Source: an uncultured Clostridia bacterium (GTDB lineage Bacteria > Bacillota > Clostridia > TANB77 > CAG-508). Taken from it: a stretch of 64,000 nt of DNA. The notes beneath the pieces were generated by a model. That model had not been told where the DNA came from and made no database searches. It saw nothing but the letters and a program-made list of their open reading frames with translations. The position numbers were made by a program, and so were the translations under genes. The stretch covers positions 332,299 to 396,298 of the forward strand of contig CAKOSX010000001.1 of assembly GCA_934119935.1 (NCBI GenBank). Reading direction: 5' to 3'. This document shows positions 3,641 to 54,795 of this stretch, in pieces (within the stretch, counting starts at the first letter, position 1; each line of letters begins with the position of its first letter).

Positions 3641-3720
3641 TTGTACAGCTCGTGTACAAACCGGTACAAAACGGGGACGGAGAAAAAAATGTACAGTTTG
3701 GGGACGAATAATGTCCCCTA
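3641..3720. repeat. GGGGACGGAG / TGTACA dispersed repeat unit plus GGGGAC-N7-GTCCCC hairpin
   Basis: gtacaaaccggtacaaaacGGGGACGGAGaaaaaaaTGTACAgtttGGGGACgaataatGTCCCC; same unit recurs at 19.5k, 23.9k, 43.5k, 51.7k, 53.9k. Confidence 0.7.
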
Positions 3721-5797: not shown

Positions 5798-6679
5798 ATG
5801 GAAAAACAAGTTAAACTTTTTTTAGATTTTCTTAAAGATGATAAAAAATTATCAGACAATACACTTCAATCATACAGAAGAGATATAGAGCAATATGAAA
5901 AATACGTTTCAGAAAATAAAATAAATTATCTAAAAGCAACTGAAGAGACAATACTAGAATATATGGAATATTTAAGAGAAGAAAACAAAAAAGAGTCGAC
6001 CATTTCAAGAAGTTTAGCATCAATAAGATCTTTTTATCAATATTTAATTCGTATAAAAAAGATAAAAAAAGATCCAACGATGACAATAGAATCACCAAAA
6101 ATAAATAAAAGAACACCAAACATATTAACATCAAAGGAAGTTGAATTATTATTAGATCAACCTAAGGATGTTGATTTAAAAGGAACAAGAGATAAGGCAA
6201 TGCTTGAATTTGCATATGCAACAGGCATGAGAGTAACAGAAATGATATCGTTAAATATAGATGATGTAAGATTAGATGAAGGATATGTTGTATGCAGAGG
6301 CAGAACAAAATCTAGAAACATTCCTTTAGGTTCAATGTCATTAAAAGCATTAAAAGAATATATTGATGATGCAAGACCATATTTAATAAGAGACGAAGAA
6401 GAAGATGCTTTATTTGTCAATGTTAATGGAACAAGATTAACAAGACAAGGATTCTGGAAAATAGTAAAATACTATAAAGAACAAGCACACATAGAAAAAG
6501 ACATAACACCACACGTATTAAGACACTCTTTTGCAACACATTTATTACAAAATGGTGCTGACTTAAAAGCAATACAAACAATGCTTGGACACTCTGACAT
6601 ATCTTCAACACAAGTATACATGCAATTCCAAGATCCTGGAATAAAAAACGAATATAAAAAAGCTCATCCAAGAGCATAA
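5798..6679 (+). CDS. xerD: Tyrosine site-specific recombinase XerD/XerC family
   Basis: 293 aa; N-terminal SAM-like domain (LSDNTLQSYRRDIEQY); catalytic R..HVLRHSFATHLL..GHSDISSTQVY. Confidence 0.8.
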   Translation: MEKQVKLFLDFLKDDKKLSDNTLQSYRRDIEQYEKYVSENKINYLKATEETILEYMEYLREENKKESTISRSLASIRSFYQYLIRIKKIKKDPTMTIESPKINKRTPNILTSKEVELLLDQPKDVDLKGTRDKAMLEFAYATGMRVTEMISLNIDDVRLDEGYVVCRGRTKSRNIPLGSMSLKALKEYIDDARPYLIRDEEEDALFVNVNGTRLTRQGFWKIVKYYKEQAHIEKDITPHVLRHSFATHLLQNGADLKAIQTMLGHSDISSTQVYMQFQDPGIKNEYKKAHPRA

Positions 6680-19494: not shown

Positions 19495-19610
19495 GTACAT
19501 TTTGTACATTTTGGGGACGGAGAAAAAAATGTACAAGATTCTTATGCAGCTTGGGAACTGTGCAGTTTGGTGCAGTTTGGGGACGGAGAAAAAATTGTAC
19601 AAAATCTTAT
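19495..19610. repeat. Two GGGGACGGAG-N7-TGTACA units (period 66) in convergent intergenic region
   Basis: ttttGGGGACGGAGaaaaaaaTGTACAa ... gtttGGGGACGGAGaaaaaatTGTACAa. Confidence 0.8.
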
Positions 19611-23839: not shown

Positions 23840-24060
23840 AAAATAGTCAAACCAAAGGTGGCGAAAATAGAGTACAATTTTTCTCTTTCCACACAATATA
23901 CTTAAGGTGGCGAAAATAGAGTACGTTTTTTCCTCCGTCCCCAAAATGCAAAAATGCACTGTACATTTTTTCCTCCGTCCCCAAAATGAAGTCCCCAAAA
24001 TGAACGAACGAAATGAACGAGATGAACGAAATGTACGAAATACAAAATGGTACTTGATTT
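23840..24060. repeat. Repeat cluster: aaggtggcgaaaatagagtac x2, inverted GGGGACGGAG units x2, (a)tgaacga x3
   Basis: Direct reading of sequence. Confidence 0.75.
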
Positions 24061-27050: not shown

Positions 27051-27077
27051 ATTAATCAATTAATTAAGCAATTAAGC

Positions 27078-27184
27078 AATAATTTATATTTTTTAAAACG
27101 AGACTGGAAGTGCGCCTTTTGAGGGGTCCGTTAGGAGCCCCGACCAAGCACGACATGTTGAGGCTTTATAAAAATATAAATTAT
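27078..27184 (+). repeat. Palindromic element with conserved about 66-nt GC-rich core (copy A, + orientation)
   Basis: aataatttatatttttt-[aaaacgagactggaagtgcgccttttgaggggtccgttaggagccccgaccaagcacgacatgttgaggctttataa]-aaaatataaattatt. Confidence 0.7.
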
Positions 27185-27324
27185 TGCTATTTGGTTTTAA
27201 CCTATTAGAAAAGTATGACGGATTCCTTAGTAAATTATTGCATACAAAATTTATAATAAAAATTGTAGAATATTGTAAATAAAAGTTGCATATGATAGAA
27301 TAAGAAAAAAATAAGAGGTAGAAA

Positions 27325-36841: not shown

Positions 36842-38825
36842 ATGAATAAGAAAATAAAAGAGGCTGAAAACCTTATGGCTGTACACACACACACACACAC
36901 ACGGACATTTTAAAGAAAAGGGAATAACATTAATTGCATTAGTAATCACAATTGTTGTTCTACTAATTCTAGCAGGAATAAGTTTGAACTTAGTACTTGG
37001 TGAGAACGGCATTGTTACGAAGGCGAAAGATGCAAGAGAACAAACAATAATAGGGCATGAAAAAGAGCAAATAAACTTAGCATATTCAGCATGTAAAACA
37101 AGAGAAAACTTTGATGATTTAGTTACAGCAAGTGAACTCGAAACAGAAATGAAAAAGTCAAATGAAAATGTATCTGTAGCAGCAGACGGAGACAATCTTG
37201 TTATTACGTTTGAAGAGACGAAGCACCAATACAACATTGGACAAGATGGAAGTTTTAAAGAAAATACTAATCAAAATATTGATTGGAGCACATTAGAGCC
37301 AGGGTTATACAAGACGGGAACATCAGAGATGATAAAATCTTGGCAAGAATTGATTGATGATGGAGACATAACAGTAGAAGGAACAAAGCTTAATGAAATT
37401 AAGACGATTTTTAGTTATGGCCAAGATGTAACTATGCCTCTGGCAGGAGATTTGATTATATCAAATGATATGACAGAAATTGGTAGCCTTACAGGAGGAA
37501 AAGCAGCTTGCTATGTTGGAAAATCAGGCATTACAGGCGTATATGTTCCATCAAGTGTAAAAAAGTTGACAAGTAGTAGTCAGTATGGCTATGGTGGCTT
37601 TTTTGCTATGTTTGATATGAAGAAAATTGTTATTGAAGAAGGGCTGGAAGAAATAGGAGATTATTCGTTTGCTAGTTGTTACAATCTTATAGAGGTAGAA
37701 TTACCAGATAGTGTTACAACAGTTGGTGACTATGCTTTCGCATGGAGCAGTAATATAGTGAATGTAAAAATACCGGATAATGTTATACTTGGCAAAGCAT
37801 GCTTTATAAGTAATAGATTAACCCAAATTCCTCAAAACATAACATCGATTGGTGAAACTATGTTTGCTAACTGTGAAGAATTGAAGGTGGTCAATATTCC
37901 AAATGGTATTACATCAATTGGAGCTAGAGCTTTTTCCGGTTGTGGTAATATAACGAGTATTAATATTCCAAGTAGTGTAAAAGTAATAGGAGAAGGAGCC
38001 TTTTTATACTGTGGTAATATAACGAACATTAATATTCCAGCTAGTGTAAAAGTAATAGGAAGAGAAGCTTTTTCCCGTTGTGGTAATATAACGAGTATTA
38101 ATATCCCAAATAGTGTAAAGAAAATAGGAGCTGAGGCTTTCAAGGATTGTGTGAACCTATCTGACATAAATGGATTTGACAATGCAATTTCAGTTGGTCT
38201 AAGGTCTCTAGATGGAACAAAGTGGTATAATAGTCAACCAGATGGAGAGGTATATATAGGAAAGACATTGTATAATTATAAAGGAACAATGTCAGCCGAT
38301 ACTAGATTAAAAATAAAAGATGGGACAGAAAATATTGCTGATAGAGCTTTTGAAGACTGTACAGGGCTAATTGAAGTGACACTACCATCTAGTGTAAAGA
38401 ATGTAGGAGAATATTGTTTTTATAATTGCAAAAATTTATCTGATGTAAATGTAAATGAAAGCATTGAGAGAATTGGATGGTGTGCTTTCAGCGGAACAAA
38501 ATGGCAAGATAGTCAAAATGATGGGTATATATACATAGGAAATGTACTTTATTATTATAAAGGTAGTGAAAGACCAAAAGAAGTACAGGTCAAGGATGGG
38601 ACAATCAGTATTACGGAAAGTGCTATTTATCCAGATACTATAATCATACCTAAAAGCGTGAAATATATAGGAGAAGGAATATTAGGAAGTAGGTGGAGTT
38701 GGAGTACATCACATAATTGTGTTGTAAATTATATGGGAACAGAAGAGGAATGGAATTCAATTGAAATTGAAGAATCAAATTTTTCTGGCAATCTTACCAT
38801 AAACTACAATTATACTGGAGAATAA
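36842..38825 (+). CDS. Prepilin-like-leader BspA-type leucine-rich repeat surface protein, phase-variable, currently frameshifted OFF
   Basis: ATG 36842 with RBS aggagg reads MNKKIKEAENLMAVHTHTHTRTF-stop. The -1 frame continues GHFKEKGITLIALVITIVVLLILAGISLNLVLGENG and LRR_5 repeats (IP.SV.SIG..AF..C). No start codon in the long frame. Confidence 0.7.
36883..36902 (+). repeat. (AC)10 dinucleotide tract inside 5' coding region
   Basis: gtACACACACACACACACACACgg at codons 15-21 of the ORF starting at ATG 36842. Confidence 0.95.
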
Positions 38826-43482: not shown

Positions 43483-43530
43483 TGTACATTTTTTGCTCCG
43501 TCCCCGAAATGCTTTCCCGAAATGCTCTTT
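43483..43530. repeat. Inverted GGGGACGGAG/TGTACA unit
   Basis: TGTACAttttttgCTCCGTCCCCgaaatgctttcccgaaatgc. Confidence 0.7.
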
Positions 43531-46213: not shown

Positions 46214-46402
46214 GAATGAGCCAAAGTTGAAAGAATTAATATCAAAAAACGTAGAAATCAATAATAAGGTACATATCAAAAATCTGCAATAATCAACAGG
46301 GAAAGCAAGACTTATGCAAGTTTAAGAAAACACATAAAAAATATTGCAGTAAAAGGCCATTAATGATATACTATATCCGAAAAAAACTTAGGAGGAAGAG
46401 TG

Positions 46403-48016
46403 ATGAAAGAAAAAAATATGCAAAACAAAAGCATTGAGATTGGAAAATCACAAGAAAAGAAAACAAGAGCAAAAGGAATAACGCTAATTGCCTTAGTAAT
46501 AACAATAGTTATACTACTAATATTAGCAGGAATAAGCATAAACCTGGTATTAGGCGAAAACGGAATAATATCAAAAGCTCAAGAATCAAGGCTAAAGTCA
46601 GACAATGCAACAGTTTCAGACTCATTAAAAATGATGATAGCAAGATACTCAATAGACGACATGGGCGAAGGCAAAACAGACGTACTTGCAAGACTGAATT
46701 CTGATGGAATAACAGACGCAAACGATGTAATAAATGTACCAGTTTTAGTCGGGGAAAAACTTGGAACAGGAAATGGTAGTGGAACAAAAGATGTGTATGT
46801 TATAAAAGATAACAAATTATACTACTATGACAAAAAAGGCGAAAAAACAGACCTTGGAGATATAGCCAACTTGCAATTTAGCGGAGACAAACAAGAATCT
46901 GGAATATTTGTAATTACATCAGATGGAACAGTATACATGAAAGATAGGCAGTCTGGAGTTTATAGCGATGAATATGAGCGTTCTACAAAAGAGGTTATAA
47001 TTCCGAGTGAAATAAATGGAATTAAAGTAAAAAAACTTGGAAATTATATGTTCTGTAACTACATTGCTTTAGAAACTGTTGGAATTCCGGATGGAGTAAC
47101 TGAAATTGGAAATTATGCTTTTTATGGTTGTAGCAAAATTGACAATATTGTTATGCCAAACAGTGTTGAATGGATTGGAAAAGGTGCTTTTTGTGAATGT
47201 AGTGAAATTGCTAATATTATAATACCAGATGGTGTTACTAGCATAGGAGATCTTGCTTTCGCAGGGTGTTCTGGCTTGGAAAATATAAAAATGTCGGAAA
47301 ATATACAATATGTTGGAGATTTAGCTTTTGCAGGAACCAAATGGCTAAAAACACTTCCAGAAGGACTACTTTATTTTGGGAATATTCTTTATGCTTATAA
47401 TGGAGAAATACCACAAGGTACAACTATAGAAATTAAAGATGGAGTTACAAGAATTAATGGAGAGGCTTTTTCAAATCAAAAGGGGCTAATAGCCATAAAA
47501 ATACCAGATAGCGTTAAAAAAATTGGAGGAAGTGCTTTTAGTGGATGCAGTGAACTGACAAGCATAATAATACCTGATAGCGTAACAAGTATAGGAGAAG
47601 ATGCTTTTGAAGATTGTACTAAATTATCAAGTATAGATATTTCTGATAGTATAGAATATGTAGGATATGATGCTTTTCAAAGGACAGCATGGCTTAACAA
47701 TCAAAACGATGGAGTGGTTTATATTGGAAAAATATTATACTGCTATAAAGGAGAAATGCCAAGCAATACAACTATAACGGTAAAAGAGGGAACTACAAGT
47801 ATTGCTGGAATCTGTTTTGCAGAATGTACAAACCTTATAAGTATTACAATCCCAAAGAGCGTAACATATATAGGAATGGGAGCATTTTATATGTGTGATA
47901 ATTTAAAAACAATAAATTATAAAGGTTCAAAGGAAGATTGGAATAATATAACAATTGAAATACAGGCACCTGATGGATCTGGAATAACTGCAACTATCAA
48001 TTATAATTATAAATAA
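46403..48016 (+). CDS. Prepilin-like-leader BspA-type leucine-rich repeat surface protein
   Basis: RAKGITLIALVITIVILLILAGISINLVLGENGII leader; multiple IPDSVTSIGD.AF..C LRR_5 repeats; RBS ttaggagg. Confidence 0.65.
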   Translation: MKEKNMQNKSIEIGKSQEKKTRAKGITLIALVITIVILLILAGISINLVLGENGIISKAQESRLKSDNATVSDSLKMMIARYSIDDMGEGKTDVLARLNSDGITDANDVINVPVLVGEKLGTGNGSGTKDVYVIKDNKLYYYDKKGEKTDLGDIANLQFSGDKQESGIFVITSDGTVYMKDRQSGVYSDEYERSTKEVIIPSEINGIKVKKLGNYMFCNYIALETVGIPDGVTEIGNYAFYGCSKIDNIVMPNSVEWIGKGAFCECSEIANIIIPDGVTSIGDLAFAGCSGLENIKMSENIQYVGDLAFAGTKWLKTLPEGLLYFGNILYAYNGEIPQGTTIEIKDGVTRINGEAFSNQKGLIAIKIPDSVKKIGGSAFSGCSELTSIIIPDSVTSIGEDAFEDCTKLSSIDISDSIEYVGYDAFQRTAWLNNQNDGVVYIGKILYCYKGEMPSNTTITVKEGTTSIAGICFAECTNLISITIPKSVTYIGMGAFYMCDNLKTINYKGSKEDWNNITIEIQAPDGSGITATINYNYK

Positions 48017-49781: not shown

Positions 49782-51713
49782 ATGTACGATGAAAAGAAAT
49801 TAGCGAAGGCTAAAGATATATTAAAGAAAAACAATCAAGAGAAAATTTTGATGTTTTTGAATAAGCTGGACGACGATAAGAAGGAAAGCTTGGCAGAACA
49901 GATTCTGAATTTGGATTTTGAACAGTTGAATAGATTGTATGCAGAAACAAAGACAGAGCCAGAAATATTGGAAAAGAAAATTGAACATACGAAATATGTC
50001 GATGAATATAAAATATCAGAAGAGATAAGAGAAAAGTATACAAAATTAGGTGAAAATGTAATAAAAAATAATCAGTATGCTGTTGTTACAATGGCAGGAG
50101 GTCAGGGCACAAGACTTGGACACAAAGGTCCAAAGGGAACATTTTTGCTAGATGTAATTCCAGAGCCTAAATATTTGTTCCAAATATTGGCCGAAAATTT
50201 GGAGAAAGCAAACAGAAAATATGGTGTTACATTACCTTGGTTTGTAATGACAAGCACAGAGAACAATGAAGAAACAGTAAAATTCTTTAAAGAGCACAAT
50301 TACTTTGGATATCCAGAGGAAAGCATTGAATTTTTTGAACAGGGAAATTTACCATTGTTATCTTTCGATGGAAGTTTAATATTGGATAAAGATTGTTCTA
50401 TTAAAGAAGCTGCAGATGGCAATGGTTGCATATATGCTGCCATGGCAAAGGCTGGAGTAATTGAAAAAATGAAGAAAATGGGCATAAAGTGGATCTTTAT
50501 AGGCTCAGTTGATAATGCTTTGTTAAATATGGTAGATCCAATTTTAGTTGGATTAACAATAGATCAGAAACACGAAATCGCATCAAAATCAGTTGCTAAG
50601 GCAAATCCACATGAAAGAGTTGGAGTATTTTGCAAAATTAATTCTGTTCCATCAGTTATAGAGTACAGCGAGTTGCCAGAAAAAATGGCAGAGGAGACCG
50701 ATAAGGATGGAGAGCTATTGTATGGAGAAGCACACATCATGTGCAACTTATTTAGCATAGATGCACTAGAAAAAGTATCAAAAGTAAAATTGCCATACCA
50801 TGTTGCAGTAAAAAAATCTGGATATATGGACGAAAATCTTGAATTTGTTGAGGCGGGAGAACCAAATGCATATAAATTTGAAGCTTTTATATTCGATGCT
50901 TTCAACTTTTTCGACGACATATCAATATTGAGAGGAAAAAGAGAATTCGATTTTGCACCAGTAAAAAATAAGGCTGGAAACGACAGTCCAGACACTGCAA
51001 GGGCATTGTACAATAATCTGGCAAGATGCAAGATAGAAAACCTATACAATTTGGATGAAACAATAGCAAAAGAATTGTTGGCAAAATATACATATCCATG
51101 GGAAGTGCTACCACACATAAGTGACTTTATCTTAGAGCTTGGAGAAAAACTTCCAAAAGACGAATACAAAAAAATTGGCGACGATGTATGGATTCATAAA
51201 TCAGCTACAGTATTTGAAACAGCATATATCCATGGACCAGCAATAATTTGCAAAGATGCTGAAATAAGACATTGCGCATTCATACGTGGAAAAGCGATAG
51301 TAGGAGAAGGCGCCGTTGTTGGAAACTCAACAGAGCTAAAAAATGTAATATTATTCAACAAAGTACAAGTGCCACATTACAACTACGTTGGAGACTCAAT
51401 ACTTGGATACAAAGCACACATGGGAGCAGGTTCAATCACGTCAAACGTAAAATCAGACAAAAAACTCGTAAAAATAAAATGTGGGATAAAACAAGAAGCT
51501 GAACAAGAGACAGAGCAAATAGAAACAGGATTAAAGAAAATTGGAGCAATGCTTGGCGACAACGTAGAAGTAGGATGCGGAAGCGTACTAAATCCTGGCA
51601 CAATAATAGGAAAAAACACAAACATATATCCTTTGTCATCAGTAAGAGGAGTAGTTCCTGCAAACAGCATATACAAAAGCAAAACAGGAACAGAAATAGT
51701 AGAAAAGAAATAA
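49782..51713 (+). CDS. Fusion of eukaryotic-type UDP-sugar pyrophosphorylase (UDPGP/UAP1-like) with C-terminal left-handed beta-helix (hexapeptide) domain
   Basis: VVTMAGGQGTRLGHKGPKGTF UDPGP signature; C-terminal 200 aa of imperfect hexapeptide repeats (IHGPAIICKDAEIRHCAFIRGKAIVGEGAVVGNST). Confidence 0.7.
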   Translation: MYDEKKLAKAKDILKKNNQEKILMFLNKLDDDKKESLAEQILNLDFEQLNRLYAETKTEPEILEKKIEHTKYVDEYKISEEIREKYTKLGENVIKNNQYAVVTMAGGQGTRLGHKGPKGTFLLDVIPEPKYLFQILAENLEKANRKYGVTLPWFVMTSTENNEETVKFFKEHNYFGYPEESIEFFEQGNLPLLSFDGSLILDKDCSIKEAADGNGCIYAAMAKAGVIEKMKKMGIKWIFIGSVDNALLNMVDPILVGLTIDQKHEIASKSVAKANPHERVGVFCKINSVPSVIEYSELPEKMAEETDKDGELLYGEAHIMCNLFSIDALEKVSKVKLPYHVAVKKSGYMDENLEFVEAGEPNAYKFEAFIFDAFNFFDDISILRGKREFDFAPVKNKAGNDSPDTARALYNNLARCKIENLYNLDETIAKELLAKYTYPWEVLPHISDFILELGEKLPKDEYKKIGDDVWIHKSATVFETAYIHGPAIICKDAEIRHCAFIRGKAIVGEGAVVGNSTELKNVILFNKVQVPHYNYVGDSILGYKAHMGAGSITSNVKSDKKLVKIKCGIKQEAEQETEQIETGLKKIGAMLGDNVEVGCGSVLNPGTIIGKNTNIYPLSSVRGVVPANSIYKSKTGTEIVEKK

Positions 51714-52003
51714 GTACAAACCTGTACAAACCGGGGACGGAGCAGAAAATGTACACTCGGAAAATGTTAAATGTACAAACCGGGGACGGAGAAAAAATTG
51801 TACACATAGAATTTATTAAATAAAAAGTACTAATTCATATTTTTAAAGCAAAAACGGAAGCTCGCCTTTTGAGGAGTCCAAAGGAGCTCTGACCAAGAGC
51901 AACGTGTTGTGGCTTTATAAAATATGAATTAGTACTTAAATTTTAAGCAAAATGTACATTTTTTTCTCCGTCCCCGGTTTGTACCGGTTTGTACAGATTT
52001 GTA
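51714..52003. repeat. Composite about 290-bp repeat: 2 direct GGGGACGGAG/TGTACA units, 111-bp palindromic core element (+ orientation), 1 inverted unit
   Basis: Core 51826..51936 flanked by perfect 24-bp arms aagtactaattcatatttt; outer arms ccGGGGACGGAG x2 left, CTCCGTCCCC right. Confidence 0.8.
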
Positions 52004-52015
52004 TTAGCTTGTTGT

Positions 52016-52387
52016 TTAGTTTTGTTCTGGAATGAAGTAGTCTACGACTCCGTAGATTAATGCACCTATTATTGCTGCAATCCAAGATATTGAGTATCCT
52101 GCTACGAAGTATTGGGTTACATATAAAACAACAGCTGCTAATATAAAACCAACAAATCCTTTACCAAATGCACTTGCATGAAGTCCTGTGAATTTTACAA
52201 GTAAAAAATCTATAACAGTTAAAACGACTGCTGCTAATGCTAGTGTCCAGATGCTGCTTATTGTAAATCCAGGAGTAAAGAATGCTGTTATAGCAAGTAT
52301 TACTGCTGATGTTACAAATCTTAAAATTACCTGAACAAAGGCGTTAGGACGTGAAGAACTTCTAGACTCGATGTTATTGTTATCCAT
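52016..52387 (-). CDS. DUF360 / phage-holin-4-like small membrane protein
   Basis: 123 aa, 4 TM, G-rich helices typical of YvlD/DUF360. Confidence 0.55.
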   Translation of the reverse strand: MDNNNIESRSSSRPNAFVQVILRFVTSAVILAITAFFTPGFTISSIWTLALAAVVLTVIDFLLVKFTGLHASAFGKGFVGFILAAVVLYVTQYFVAGYSISWIAAIIGALIYGVVDYFIPEQN

Positions 52388-52695
52388 AAAAACCTCCCAT
52401 GATTAATTTTTTTGATTTTTAATCTTTAATTTTTGAAACTTGATCTAATTGTACTAAATATTATTTGATTTAATTTGAATTGTTCTAAAATTAATTTGCT
52501 TTATTTACTCATAGTATTTACAGAAAAATATATAATATTCAAAAAATGAATAAATCATGAAAAAATAGCAAAAATAAAACTGAAAAAGATTTTTTATATT
52601 GAATTATACAGTTTTAGCTAATTCTATATGAATTTTATAATTTTATATAGACTTAGCATTTTATATAGAGTTTATGAGATACAATAAGGTTCTAT

Positions 52696-53424
52696 ATGAA
52701 ATTTACAGCATGGAGAAAGGAAGAAGAGGTTATGCTAGCAACTTTTTTCAGATCAATTATTATTTATATAATCGTTCTAATTGTTATGAGACTAATGGGA
52801 AAACGAGAGATAGGTCAAATGCAACCGTTCGAACTTGCTATTTCGATAATGATTGCAGATTTAGCGTCAATTCCGATGACTGACATAGGAATACCGATTT
52901 CAAATGGAATAATTCCAATATTAGGGTTGCTAGTAATGCACCTAGTTATATCAATTTTAAATATAAAAAGCAGTATGATAAGAGAATTTATATGTGGAAA
53001 GCCAACTGTGTTAATTAATAAGGGAAAGATAGACGAAGTTCAAATGAGAAAAGAACGTTTTACACTCAATGAGCTAGAAGAAAAACTAAGAAGCAATAAT
53101 GTTATGAATATTGGAGATGTGGAGTTTGCTATATTAGAAACGAGCGGTGACATATCTGTAATACAAAAACCGAACAAGAGAACGACAACTCCGGAGGATT
53201 TCAACATAATGCCAGACTATGAGGGTATGACGTATAACCTAGTAATTGATGGAAAAGTGATGAATGAGAATCTAAAACTTATAGAAAAAAACTATGATTG
53301 GTTAAAAAAACAAACTCAAAAATTTCAGATGATGCCAGAAGAGGCACTGATTGTAACAATAAATGAAAAAGGCAATATATTTTGTCAAAGGAAAGAAAGA
53401 AAAGAAAATGAAGAAAGGAAATAA
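52696..53424 (+). CDS. DUF421 (YetF-like) membrane protein
   Basis: N-terminal 3 TM plus YetF C-terminal domain; true start may be MLATFF (52732). Confidence 0.65.
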   Translation: MKFTAWRKEEEVMLATFFRSIIIYIIVLIVMRLMGKREIGQMQPFELAISIMIADLASIPMTDIGIPISNGIIPILGLLVMHLVISILNIKSSMIREFICGKPTVLINKGKIDEVQMRKERFTLNELEEKLRSNNVMNIGDVEFAILETSGDISVIQKPNKRTTTPEDFNIMPDYEGMTYNLVIDGKVMNENLKLIEKNYDWLKKQTQKFQMMPEEALIVTINEKGNIFCQRKERKENEERK

Positions 53425-53432
53425 TCCTGAAT

Positions 53433-53834
53433 ATGAAAAAAGAACTTATTATAGTAATTATAATAGTGATAGCAATAATTATAATAGATACTGTAACCCA
53501 TAATTATACCACGTATAGCTTTGAAAAAATAAACAATGAATTAGAACAAATAAAAGAAATAAGCAAGAAAATCGATGATCAAGAAAAAAACTCACAACAA
53601 GAACTTCAAGAAAAAATAAAAACAATGGAAGAAGATTGGAAAATAATAAATAGAAAAACAGCATTTTACATTGAGCATGAAGAGCTAGAAAAAGTAAATG
53701 CGTCAATGATAAAATTCAAAAGCTATATACAGTTAGAAGAATACACAGAAGCAATACCCGAACTAGAAAATTGCAAGTACATTTTAGACCATATACGAGA
53801 AAAAGAAAAAATGCAAATAATAAATCTATTCTAG
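53433..53834 (+). CDS. DUF4363-like protein (usual partner of DUF421)
   Basis: 133 aa, N-terminal TM, coiled-coil; gene pair architecture. Confidence 0.5.
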   Translation: MKKELIIVIIIVIAIIIIDTVTHNYTTYSFEKINNELEQIKEISKKIDDQEKNSQQELQEKIKTMEEDWKIINRKTAFYIEHEELEKVNASMIKFKSYIQLEEYTEAIPELENCKYILDHIREKEKMQIINLF

Positions 53835-54130
53835 TACAAACCGGTACAATTCGGTACAATTTGGGGACGGAGCTAAAAATGTACAATTGGAAAATATTAA
53901 ATGTACAAACTGGGGACGGAGCTAAAAATGTACATTAAAAAACTGTAAATACAAAAGTACTAAGTCATTTCTTATAAAGCTACGACACGTCGTTCTTGGT
54001 CGGAGCTCTTTCGGGCTCATCAAGAAGCGAACTTCCGTTCTTACTTTATAAGAAATGACTTAGTACTTAAATTTTTGAAAAAATGTACAATTTTTTCTCC
54101 GTCCCCGAATTGTACGCCGAATTGTACAAA
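53835..54130. repeat. Composite about 295-bp repeat, second copy, core element inverted relative to copy at 51.7k
   Basis: Core 53956..54066 with perfect 24-bp arms agtactaagtcatttcttataaag; inner 66 nt is reverse complement of the 51.8k core; outer arms same polarity as first copy. Confidence 0.8.
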
Positions 54131-54138
54131 TTATATCA

Positions 54139-54795
54139 TTATGTGCATATTTTGAATATGAAGCTTGTTAAAAATATGTATGCGTATTTGTAGAATTTTG
54201 TGTTTGATAGTTGGGCTTTATTATATTCGAAAAATGATTTTAAAGCACTACGTTTATCCATAATTGTTATTAGAAAGCTTTCTTTATATTTAGGAAGGCT
54301 TAATAATGTTACTGGCCACATGTGCTTTATGATTATGTCTTTTTCTTTATCATTTAAATTAAATAATTTTTCTGCGTTATATAAGGCAATTTGTGGATGT
54401 ATAAAAGCATGAAAATGTTTTAAATGAAGTTTTTTCTTAGAACCTCTCCAATCATATAAAAATAAATCGTGTAGCATTGCGCCCCTCGCAGCAGAAACAT
54501 AATCCCAGCCGTATTTTTTGCAAAATAAATATGACCAATAGGCAACTTCTAAGCAATGATCATAGCAAGAACAATCGTAGTGTTGCCTGAAATTTTTCAT
54601 CTGCTTTACTGTAGGATTTTCTAAAATATCTTTTGTTATATCTAAAAATTCGATTATATTATCATAGTTATATGTATGGGTACGTAACGGCATATCGCCA
54701 TGTATGCGCACTGGCACGCTGTCACGTGTGCTCTCGGAAAAATTGCTATGTGATTGTACATTAATCTTTTTCTCTCTAACCTTTAAAGTTTGCAT
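54139..54795 (-). CDS. HD-domain phosphohydrolase
   Basis: H...HD (AMLHDLFLYDW) motif; 218 aa. Confidence 0.6.
   Translation of the reverse strand: MQTLKVREKKINVQSHSNFSESTRDSVPVRIHGDMPLRTHTYNYDNIIEFLDITKDILENPTVKQMKNFRQHYDCSCYDHCLEVAYWSYLFCKKYGWDYVSAARGAMLHDLFLYDWRGSKKKLHLKHFHAFIHPQIALYNAEKLFNLNDKEKDIIIKHMWPVTLLSLPKYKESFLITIMDKRSALKSFFEYNKAQLSNTKFYKYAYIFLTSFIFKICT

Follow-up and report, generated by a model that had tools for sequence, protein, structure and literature searches.

Several described systems bear on a pair of repeats that we have analysed in a 64,000-nt stretch of DNA (hereafter the window) from an uncultured Clostridia bacterium (GenBank assembly GCA_934119935.1, contig CAKOSX010000001.1, positions 332,299 to 396,298). 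The two repeats, composite A and composite B, lie within positions 51714-54130 of the window on either side of a three-gene block, and each of them holds a hairpin between copies of a shorter repeat unit. Correia elements (CREE/nemis) of Neisseria have inverted repeats that, once transcribed, fold into hairpins bound or cleaved by RNase III, with effects on neighbouring genes (PMC2649163). REP, BIME and REPIN sequences are short, dense extragenic repeats that occur in mosaic clusters of direct and inverted copies, in which inverted doublets give rise to long hairpins (PMC3337134, PMC3116915). Invertons of gut bacteria are phase-variable invertible promoters, in which inverted repeats flank a short intergenic segment (PMC11892184, PMC11602134). 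Finally, in non-coding hairpins of the chloroplast, the spacer between short inverted repeats flips recurrently without a dedicated recombinase, an effect ascribed to the hairpin itself (PMC12371153, citing Kelchner and Wendel 1996).

Each composite was found to be a mosaic nested palindrome built from two unrelated dispersed repeat families, a unit of about 33 nt and a hairpin with a conserved apex, and the hairpin interiors of A and B lie in opposite orientations within frames that run the same way. We consider it probable that composites A and B are old paralogues in which the apex was flipped passively or replaced, and that they act as hairpins at the 3' ends of transcripts, with no dedicated invertase. 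The most valuable outcome of the analysis is the hairpin family itself, a candidate structured motif that is widespread in uncultured human-gut Clostridia, is backed by covariation, lacks a match in Rfam 15 and has a defined consensus.

Architecture of composites A and B

The composites, their parts and the block between them are arranged as follows:

51714-52005, no strand assigned: composite A, a nested palindrome that comprises mini-repeats, then two direct units, spacer, hairpin and second spacer, then one inverted unit and again mini-repeats
51723-51755, plus strand: unit A1, TGTACAAACC-GGGGACGGAG-CAGAAAA-TGTACA
51772-51804, plus strand: unit A2, which forms with A3 an inverted pair of 32 nt, 97% complementary (inverted repeat I5)
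51825-51937, apex on the plus strand: hairpin A, 113 nt, with arms 51825-51849 and 51913-51937
51953-51985, minus strand: unit A3, inverted, detected as an inverted repeat and in the GGGGACGGAG count
52016-53834: three-gene block with Pfam matches to PF04020 (formerly DUF360; minus strand), PF04239 (DUF421; plus strand) and PF14276 (DUF4363; plus strand)
53835-54130, no strand assigned: composite B, with the layout of composite A and the hairpin interior reversed
53853-53885, plus strand: unit B1, detected in the GGGGACGGAG count
53902-53934, plus strand: unit B2, missing from L003 and L005, two strains in which site B is shorter by 49 nt
53955-54068, apex on the minus strand: hairpin B, 114 nt, with arms 53955-53979 and 54044-54068 (inverted repeat I11)
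54084-54116, minus strand: unit B3, inverted, detected as an inverted repeat and in the GGGGACGGAG count

The original prediction had described a shared layout with co-oriented outer arms and an inverted core, and all three features were confirmed. Both composites consist of two direct G-rich units on the left, the hairpin, and one C-rich inverted unit on the right. Using a repeat finder and a four-way alignment, the left parts of A and B aligned directly (51714-51843 with 53844-53973, 78% identity), and so did the right parts (51906-51984 with 54037-54115, 84% identity). The interiors could be aligned only as reverse complements (51841-51937 with 53955-54051; 97 nt, 81% identity), the apex being on the plus strand in A and on the minus strand in B. 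The same prediction had attributed perfect 24-bp arms to both cores. This held for composite B, whose arms pair perfectly over 25 bp (53955-53979 with 54044-54068), but not for composite A, in which 19 perfect pairs (51825-51843 with 51919-51937) are followed by a one-base bulge and then by about 5 pairs.

Besides the hairpin arms, each composite contains an inverted pair of 32-nt units around the hairpin. The spacer between these inverted units measures about 148 nt and holds the hairpin, which belongs to the second repeat family. Tandem Repeats Finder reported a 49-nt period at A and mini-repeats of 10-12 nt at both ends of A and B. The whole composites fold as a single nested hairpin of about 290 nt (-111 to -123 kcal/mol, z from -10.5 to -15), with values of -122.6 kcal/mol (z = -15) for composite A and -121.9 kcal/mol (z = -15) for composite B; the fold of hairpin A alone reaches -42.9 kcal/mol (z = -7.2).

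The units themselves form a lineage-restricted dispersed repeat with the consensus TGTACA-N4-GGGGACGGAG-N7-TGTACA. The string GGGGACGGAG occurs 13 times in the window, where 0.33 occurrences would be expected by chance, and 12 of these copies are intergenic, spread over seven loci as solo or tandem units. The remaining copy is coding, being part of the sequence that encodes the GDGVND motif of a P-type ATPase, and is a chance match. Units are preceded by mini-repeats of 9-12 nt that are specific to each locus, several of them stand immediately before a plain terminator hairpin, and a few copies are also present in related contigs that lack composites. Numbers of units and mini-repeats vary among strains, the copy number changing in 49-nt steps. 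Outside the composites, the units of the window include:

3663-3695, plus strand: solo unit, with a plain terminator hairpin after it (3700-3719)
19503-19601, plus strand: two direct units (19503-19535 and 19569-19601), then a plain terminator hairpin
23921-23989, minus strand: two direct units in a divergent promoter region
43483-43512, minus strand: solo unit, detected in the GGGGACGGAG count

With 12 intergenic copies in 64 kb and inverted pairs at A and B, the unit is similar to REP, BIME and REPIN sequences. It differs from REP in that single units are only weakly palindromic (-3.0 to -8.7 kcal/mol, z from -1.3 to -4.4), inverted doublets being those of A and B, and in that the spacer within these doublets is occupied by an unrelated second family. 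No RAYT gene, as in the REPIN-RAYT system, was present among the open reading frames of the window that were examined.

Two other repeat arrangements were observed beside units or at the corresponding sites. In the divergent promoter region of the window, next to the two minus-strand units, the 21-nt sequence AAGGTGGCGAAAATAGAGTAC occurs twice in direct repeat (23858-23925). At site A of a related species (L103:3654-3942, and likewise in L104-L106) there is another, species-specific repeat cluster composed of ATATTCGAGAC-type units and TAAGAATC mini-repeats; its architecture is analogous to that of the window composites and its sequence is unrelated.

Orientation of the hairpin interior among relatives

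Orientation was compared between the window and related contigs, which are labelled with L-numbers. The comparison also took in a third member of the hairpin family:

27071-27188, plus strand: hairpin C, without flanking units, just downstream of a P-type ATPase gene

In near-identical strains (at least six distinct ones), the apex was on the plus strand at A and on the minus strand at B in all cases, and site C was identical across 8 strains. Orientation differed only in relatives that are 96-98% identical. At site B, the apex of L071 is on the plus strand, as opposed to the minus strand in the window and in at least six other strains, the units and spacers being 97-100% identical. At site A, a 200-bp module comprising spacer, hairpin and spacer is inverted between the inverted units in L026 relative to L071 (about 98% identical overall), with breakpoints at the TTGTAC/GTACAA edges. 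At an unrelated locus, comparison of L022 with L045 and L064 revealed a clean inversion of the entire hairpin, including its imperfect arms, with breakpoints in the outer 10 bp. The breakpoints differ in level, lying inside the arms at B and inside the units at A. Flips at two nested levels, and at unrelated loci that share no arm sequence, fit structure-driven events and fit a sequence-specific invertase poorly. The predicted change of core orientation within a constant frame was thus borne out at sites A and B and also at a locus unrelated to them, while the site-specific invertible switch inferred from it received no support.

Such a programmed switch would require that a site-specific recombinase flip the core between the arms, altering either the choice of the convergent transcript that carries the sense motif or the expression of neighbouring genes. 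The perfect arms at B, the three loci at which orientation varies between relatives of 96-98% identity, and the clean inversion between L022 and L045 are all consistent with it. However, no invertase is encoded nearby: an adjacent xerD-type or invertase gene had been suggested as its source, and the only recombinase gene of the 64-kb window is XerD-like and located at 5798-6679, 45 kb from the composites. No recombinase or transposase gene recurs near the 62 related loci either. The arms differ from locus to locus (36% identity between loci, 23 loci compared), so there is no common recombination site. No sigma-70-like promoter was detected inside 51825-51937 or 53955-54068, and a scan of 51400-54400 gave 14 such sites where 15.0 were expected. 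In addition, orientation was the same in all near-identical strains at A, B and C, and the breakpoints lie at different levels. There is, therefore, no sign of a programmed switch, which we regard as very improbable, and passive flipping or replacement between nested inverted repeats is the best reading.

The comparison with known inversion systems points in the same direction. As in invertons, the orientation of a segment differs between human-gut bacterial genomes and flanking inverted repeats are present; unlike invertons, the composites have no internal promoter and no adjacent invertase, and their inverted repeats are not conserved across loci. The small inversions of chloroplasts are the closest precedent, since they also involve recurrent flips among close relatives without a dedicated recombinase. 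They differ in size and setting, being of 4-50 bp and in an organelle, whereas those of the composites involve 64-200 bp of a bacterial chromosome and have a conserved structured motif inside. Screens of gut metagenomes that look for invertons by their inverted repeats could misflag nested repeats at terminator sites as phase-variable switches.

One contig showed a further anomaly at site A. In L026, an OLE (Ornate Large Extremophilic) RNA (L026:90-642, 304 bits), followed by the gene of a 224-aa membrane protein, directly abuts composite A. No other locus has this RNA and gene, the window and all other strains having the DUF360 block there, and the junction reflects either a rearrangement at the composite or a chimeric assembly. 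Composites are a possible cause of rearrangements or misassemblies, as in this junction.

A hairpin family with a conserved apex

A scan with the inner core of the hairpin retrieved matches in 3 metagenome-assembled genomes of uncultured Clostridia from the genome collection and in 62 metagenome loci; all of the latter with a source in the record name came from human-gut assemblies. No match was obtained in the viral contig collection, nor did plasmid and phage records match the hairpin family. A covariance model gave 81 hits in 68 sources (the window and related human-gut Clostridia contigs), with exactly 3 copies in the window: hairpin A (51836-51925, plus strand, 100 bits), hairpin B (53967-54056, minus strand, 86 bits) and hairpin C (27086-27176, plus strand, 93 bits). 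Several loci hold two copies, 0.6-8 kb apart. No repeat of the window matched Rfam 15 at the gathering threshold, nor when E-values of up to 1-10 were allowed, and a literature search by sequence strings returned unrelated primers only. The hairpin would therefore represent a candidate new structured family, apparently undescribed and common in gut Clostridia.

In related loci the apex (about 60 nt) shares 92-96% identity with that of copy A, while the arms that flank it are wholly different yet paired. It takes the form P4 (GCUC), loop GCC-U(n)-GA, P5 (GGAGUCC...GGAGCUCC), loop GACCAA and P4' (GAGC), so that a conserved unpaired internal loop lies between P4 and P5, with GCC-U(2-4)-GA on its 5' side and GACCAA on its 3' side. 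Both P4 and P5 were supported by RNAalifold and by explicit pair counts, in which 97.7% of the cells were standard pairs. Changes on both sides were seen in 8/10 apical pairs, and none of 500 shuffles reached the observed covariation score; when the partner was slid by 1-3 columns as a control, only 29-58% were paired. Hairpin C by itself shows double compensatory changes, P4 having GUGC/GCAC where GCUC/GAGC is usual and P5 having GGGG/CCCC for GGAG/CUCC. The closing arms are AT-rich, locus-specific and always complementary, with 23 distinct arm sets. Pairing between the two arms of one hairpin averaged -20.0 kcal/mol, as compared with -6.3 kcal/mol for arms taken from different loci, and the outer stem covaries as a whole. 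Conserved apex and locus-specific arms are the reverse of what classical miniature inverted-repeat elements show, and the pattern prompts one to ask how hairpins of this kind come about at terminators.

Other structural assignments were tried and rejected. A hammerhead or other ribozyme was considered from the string GAUGAG...GAAA of copy B, which recalls a hammerhead core; most copies have GAGGAG and no GAAA junction, and there was no match to an Rfam ribozyme. An alternative inner helix, CUUUUG/CAAGAG, appears in many minimum-energy folds and is impossible in copy C, in the second L038 copy and in the second L010 copy, all of which keep P4. A canonical k-turn at the tandem GA/GA beside P5 was discarded by inspection only, its loop lengths being unsuitable.

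The covariation of P4 and P5, the conserved unpaired internal loop, a U·G pair conserved on one strand, and the slightly greater stability of the sense strand in 31/48 cases (mean 2.4 kcal/mol) would all suit a small RNA gene transcribed independently from its own promoter, with its copies properly oriented and the flanking units irrelevant to it. Nevertheless, no conserved promoter-like sequence is present upstream, because arms and flanks are locus-specific, and the element begins and ends as one closed hairpin. Flips at the same locus between strains would repeatedly detach such an RNA from a fixed external promoter, and the position of the hairpin coincides with terminators of related species (see below). 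We thus consider a small RNA gene improbable. Slightly less so, although still quite unlikely, would be that the apex stands for a class of element new to human-gut Clostridia, active as structured RNA or as folded single-stranded DNA, that colonises or replaces terminator hairpins, and that its nested inverted repeats allow a heritable, structure-driven and recombinase-independent switch, with regulatory consequences, between the two convergent transcripts that may carry the sense motif.

The main rival to passive flipping is a non-autonomous mobile element of the Correia, ERIC or REPIN type, either the hairpin or the segment from unit to unit, that would insert either way and preferentially at terminators; the opposite orientations would then be separate insertions and not inversions. 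The family has many copies, the orientation of which is unbiased with respect to the genes beside them (10, 9, 9 and 7 over the four arrangements), and related species have empty sites at A, B and C. The units, with 32 nt that are 97% complementary, could serve as terminal inverted repeats, and solo units resemble solo Correia repeats (PMC2649163). Insertion would also account for the site-B hairpin of L071, which differs from the window copy by about 20% within a near-identical frame, and for the chimeric left and right arms of L032, L013 and L068. Indeed, the hairpin family and CREE have several features in common, both being intergenic (CREE of about 100-155 bp) and multi-copy, with inverted-repeat ends, a directional conserved core and solo repeats alongside.

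The likeness does not extend to the ends of the elements. CREE conserve 26-bp terminal repeats and have a target duplication, whereas in the hairpin family it is the apex that is conserved; locus-specific arms are the opposite of the conserved terminal repeats that a transposase would recognise. No consistent direct duplication was seen beside the arms, where short ones are difficult to assess because the flanks are AT-rich. The open reading frames of the window that were examined include no transposase or RAYT gene, none recurred at the 62 loci, and an all-against-all comparison of the open reading frames of 65 loci found no associated gene, only the same loci repeatedly sampled. Copies within one genome are about 80% alike, as opposed to the 92-96% identity between copy A and copies of other species; this greater divergence within the genome than across species points to selection on the apex and argues against recent spread. 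Moreover, no empty site and no presence/absence polymorphism was found within the species. The locus-specific arms, the lack of a visible duplication, the lack of a transposase gene and the old divergence weaken this explanation, which we consider unlikely.

Some family members deserve separate mention. In the core regions of L032, L013 and L068, the left flank and arm come from one locus and the right ones from another, which indicates either recombination inside the conserved apex or assembly chimeras. One locus of the family, about 490 nt upstream of rpoB, was recovered repeatedly from different samples (L011:5724-5813 and about 17 further loci), with no change of orientation among them. 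Just upstream of hairpin C, an 8-nt mini-repeat, ATTAAGCA, has a copy number of 2 or 3 that varies among strains (L074).

Terminator positions and the neighbouring genes

Both composites had been placed at convergent terminator positions, and this assignment proved correct and gave the most informative lead, since both lie between convergent genes and relatives carry plain terminators there. At site A, L107 has 34 nt with a plain bidirectional terminator, and L102, whose DUF421 protein is 94% identical, has one of the plain kind too. Site B consists in L107 of 56 nt that include a plain hairpin and in L103 of overlapping stop codons, while L102 contains on the minus strand a degenerate hairpin of the family (32.5 bits) without units. 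At site C, the ATPase and deacetylase genes are separated by 104 nt and 21 nt in species whose deacetylases are 78% and 64% identical, respectively; L093 and L096 have canonical terminators just past the stop codon of the ATPase gene, and neither the family hairpin nor the unit is present at the site C loci of related species. Since plain terminators occur at A, B and C in related species, all three hairpins of the window occupy positions of ordinary terminators in relatives. In the window, a search of 51400-54400 for canonical terminators returned 0 terminator-like sites.

Two further proposals about these positions were not sustained. Insertion of the core into the loop of an ancestral terminator was examined by comparing the site-B stem of L107, TACTAGATAAT, with the arm of L071, TACTAGGTAAT, and the similarity was not significant, 38/500 shuffles giving at least the same score. 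Enrichment of U-tracts after the hairpins was likewise discarded: there were 4.6 T in the 10 nt downstream, about 3.3 being expected, and the hairpin boundaries are too noisy.

In the reading that we favour, that of old paralogues with a passively flipped or replaced apex, A and B would descend from one whole composite, as their identity of 78-84% over the full length suggests. The opposite orientation of the apex would have arisen by a passive flip or by replacement of the DNA between the inverted arms, the likely routes being recombination, gene conversion or replication template switching at the nested inverted repeats. The arms of A, B and L071-B differ at several positions on both sides, and the two arms within one hairpin stay identical. 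We propose that the process that flips the interior would also maintain this identity between arms. On transcription from one or the other convergent gene, a composite would give a highly stable hairpin at the 3' end, with a role in termination or in the stability and processing of the RNA, and the conserved internal loop of the apex would be a putative binding site for a factor, possibly a protein. Such a role would resemble that of the Correia hairpins of Neisseria as RNase III substrates.

Several observations weigh against this reading. It is the position of the hairpins that suggests a role in termination or RNA stability; with 113-290 nt, long AT-rich stems and interrupted U-runs, they are unlike canonical terminators. 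The strand evidence for an RNA comes from one U·G pair, conserved in 43/49 distinct sequences, and the arms show no strand asymmetry in their wobble pairs (19 vs 15); the functional form may for that reason be folded DNA instead. The orientation data derive from consensus metagenome assemblies, in which L026 and L071 are represented by single contigs each. Finally, the site-B hairpin of L071 is about 80% identical to the window copy and nearer to the A type, and for this site replacement or conversion from another copy, or re-insertion, fits better than a simple flip.

The direct orientation of the two composites had also led to the suggestion that the block between them might be deleted, duplicated or mobilised, which was not borne out. 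Species with a DUF421 protein 83-86% identical have the gene order UDPGP, hexapeptide protein, DUF360, DUF421, DUF4363, HD and RecG, so that the order is conserved in relatives free of composites. The check for presence or absence among strains found the block kept in L071 and in all of the about 22 contigs read, and deletion through direct repeats was rejected, the block being present in every strain and exact direct matches between A and B extending to no more than 17 nt. Its conserved order marks the three-gene block as ancestral, and it belongs to no mobile unit. To the left of composite A, the UDPGP and hexapeptide proteins are encoded in the window by a single fused gene (49782-51713, 643 aa), and in L103:1667-3653 and L107:2003-3974 by two separate neighbouring genes, the products of which have about 417-420 aa and 221-222 aa.

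Elsewhere in the window, the region 46400-48016 codes for a pilin-like protein with LRR_5 repeats, the length of which varies from 537 to 818 aa depending on the strain (comparison loci L001:2971-4584, L002:2125-4581, L003:2827-4593 and L004:2657-4633). The same prepilin-like N-terminus is found in several other genes of the window, with starts at 36984, 42214 and 57776. Near the deacetylase locus of a related species, a reverse transcriptase gene adjoins a bAvd-like gene (L099:6916-8372), a pair that is a signature of a diversity-generating retroelement.

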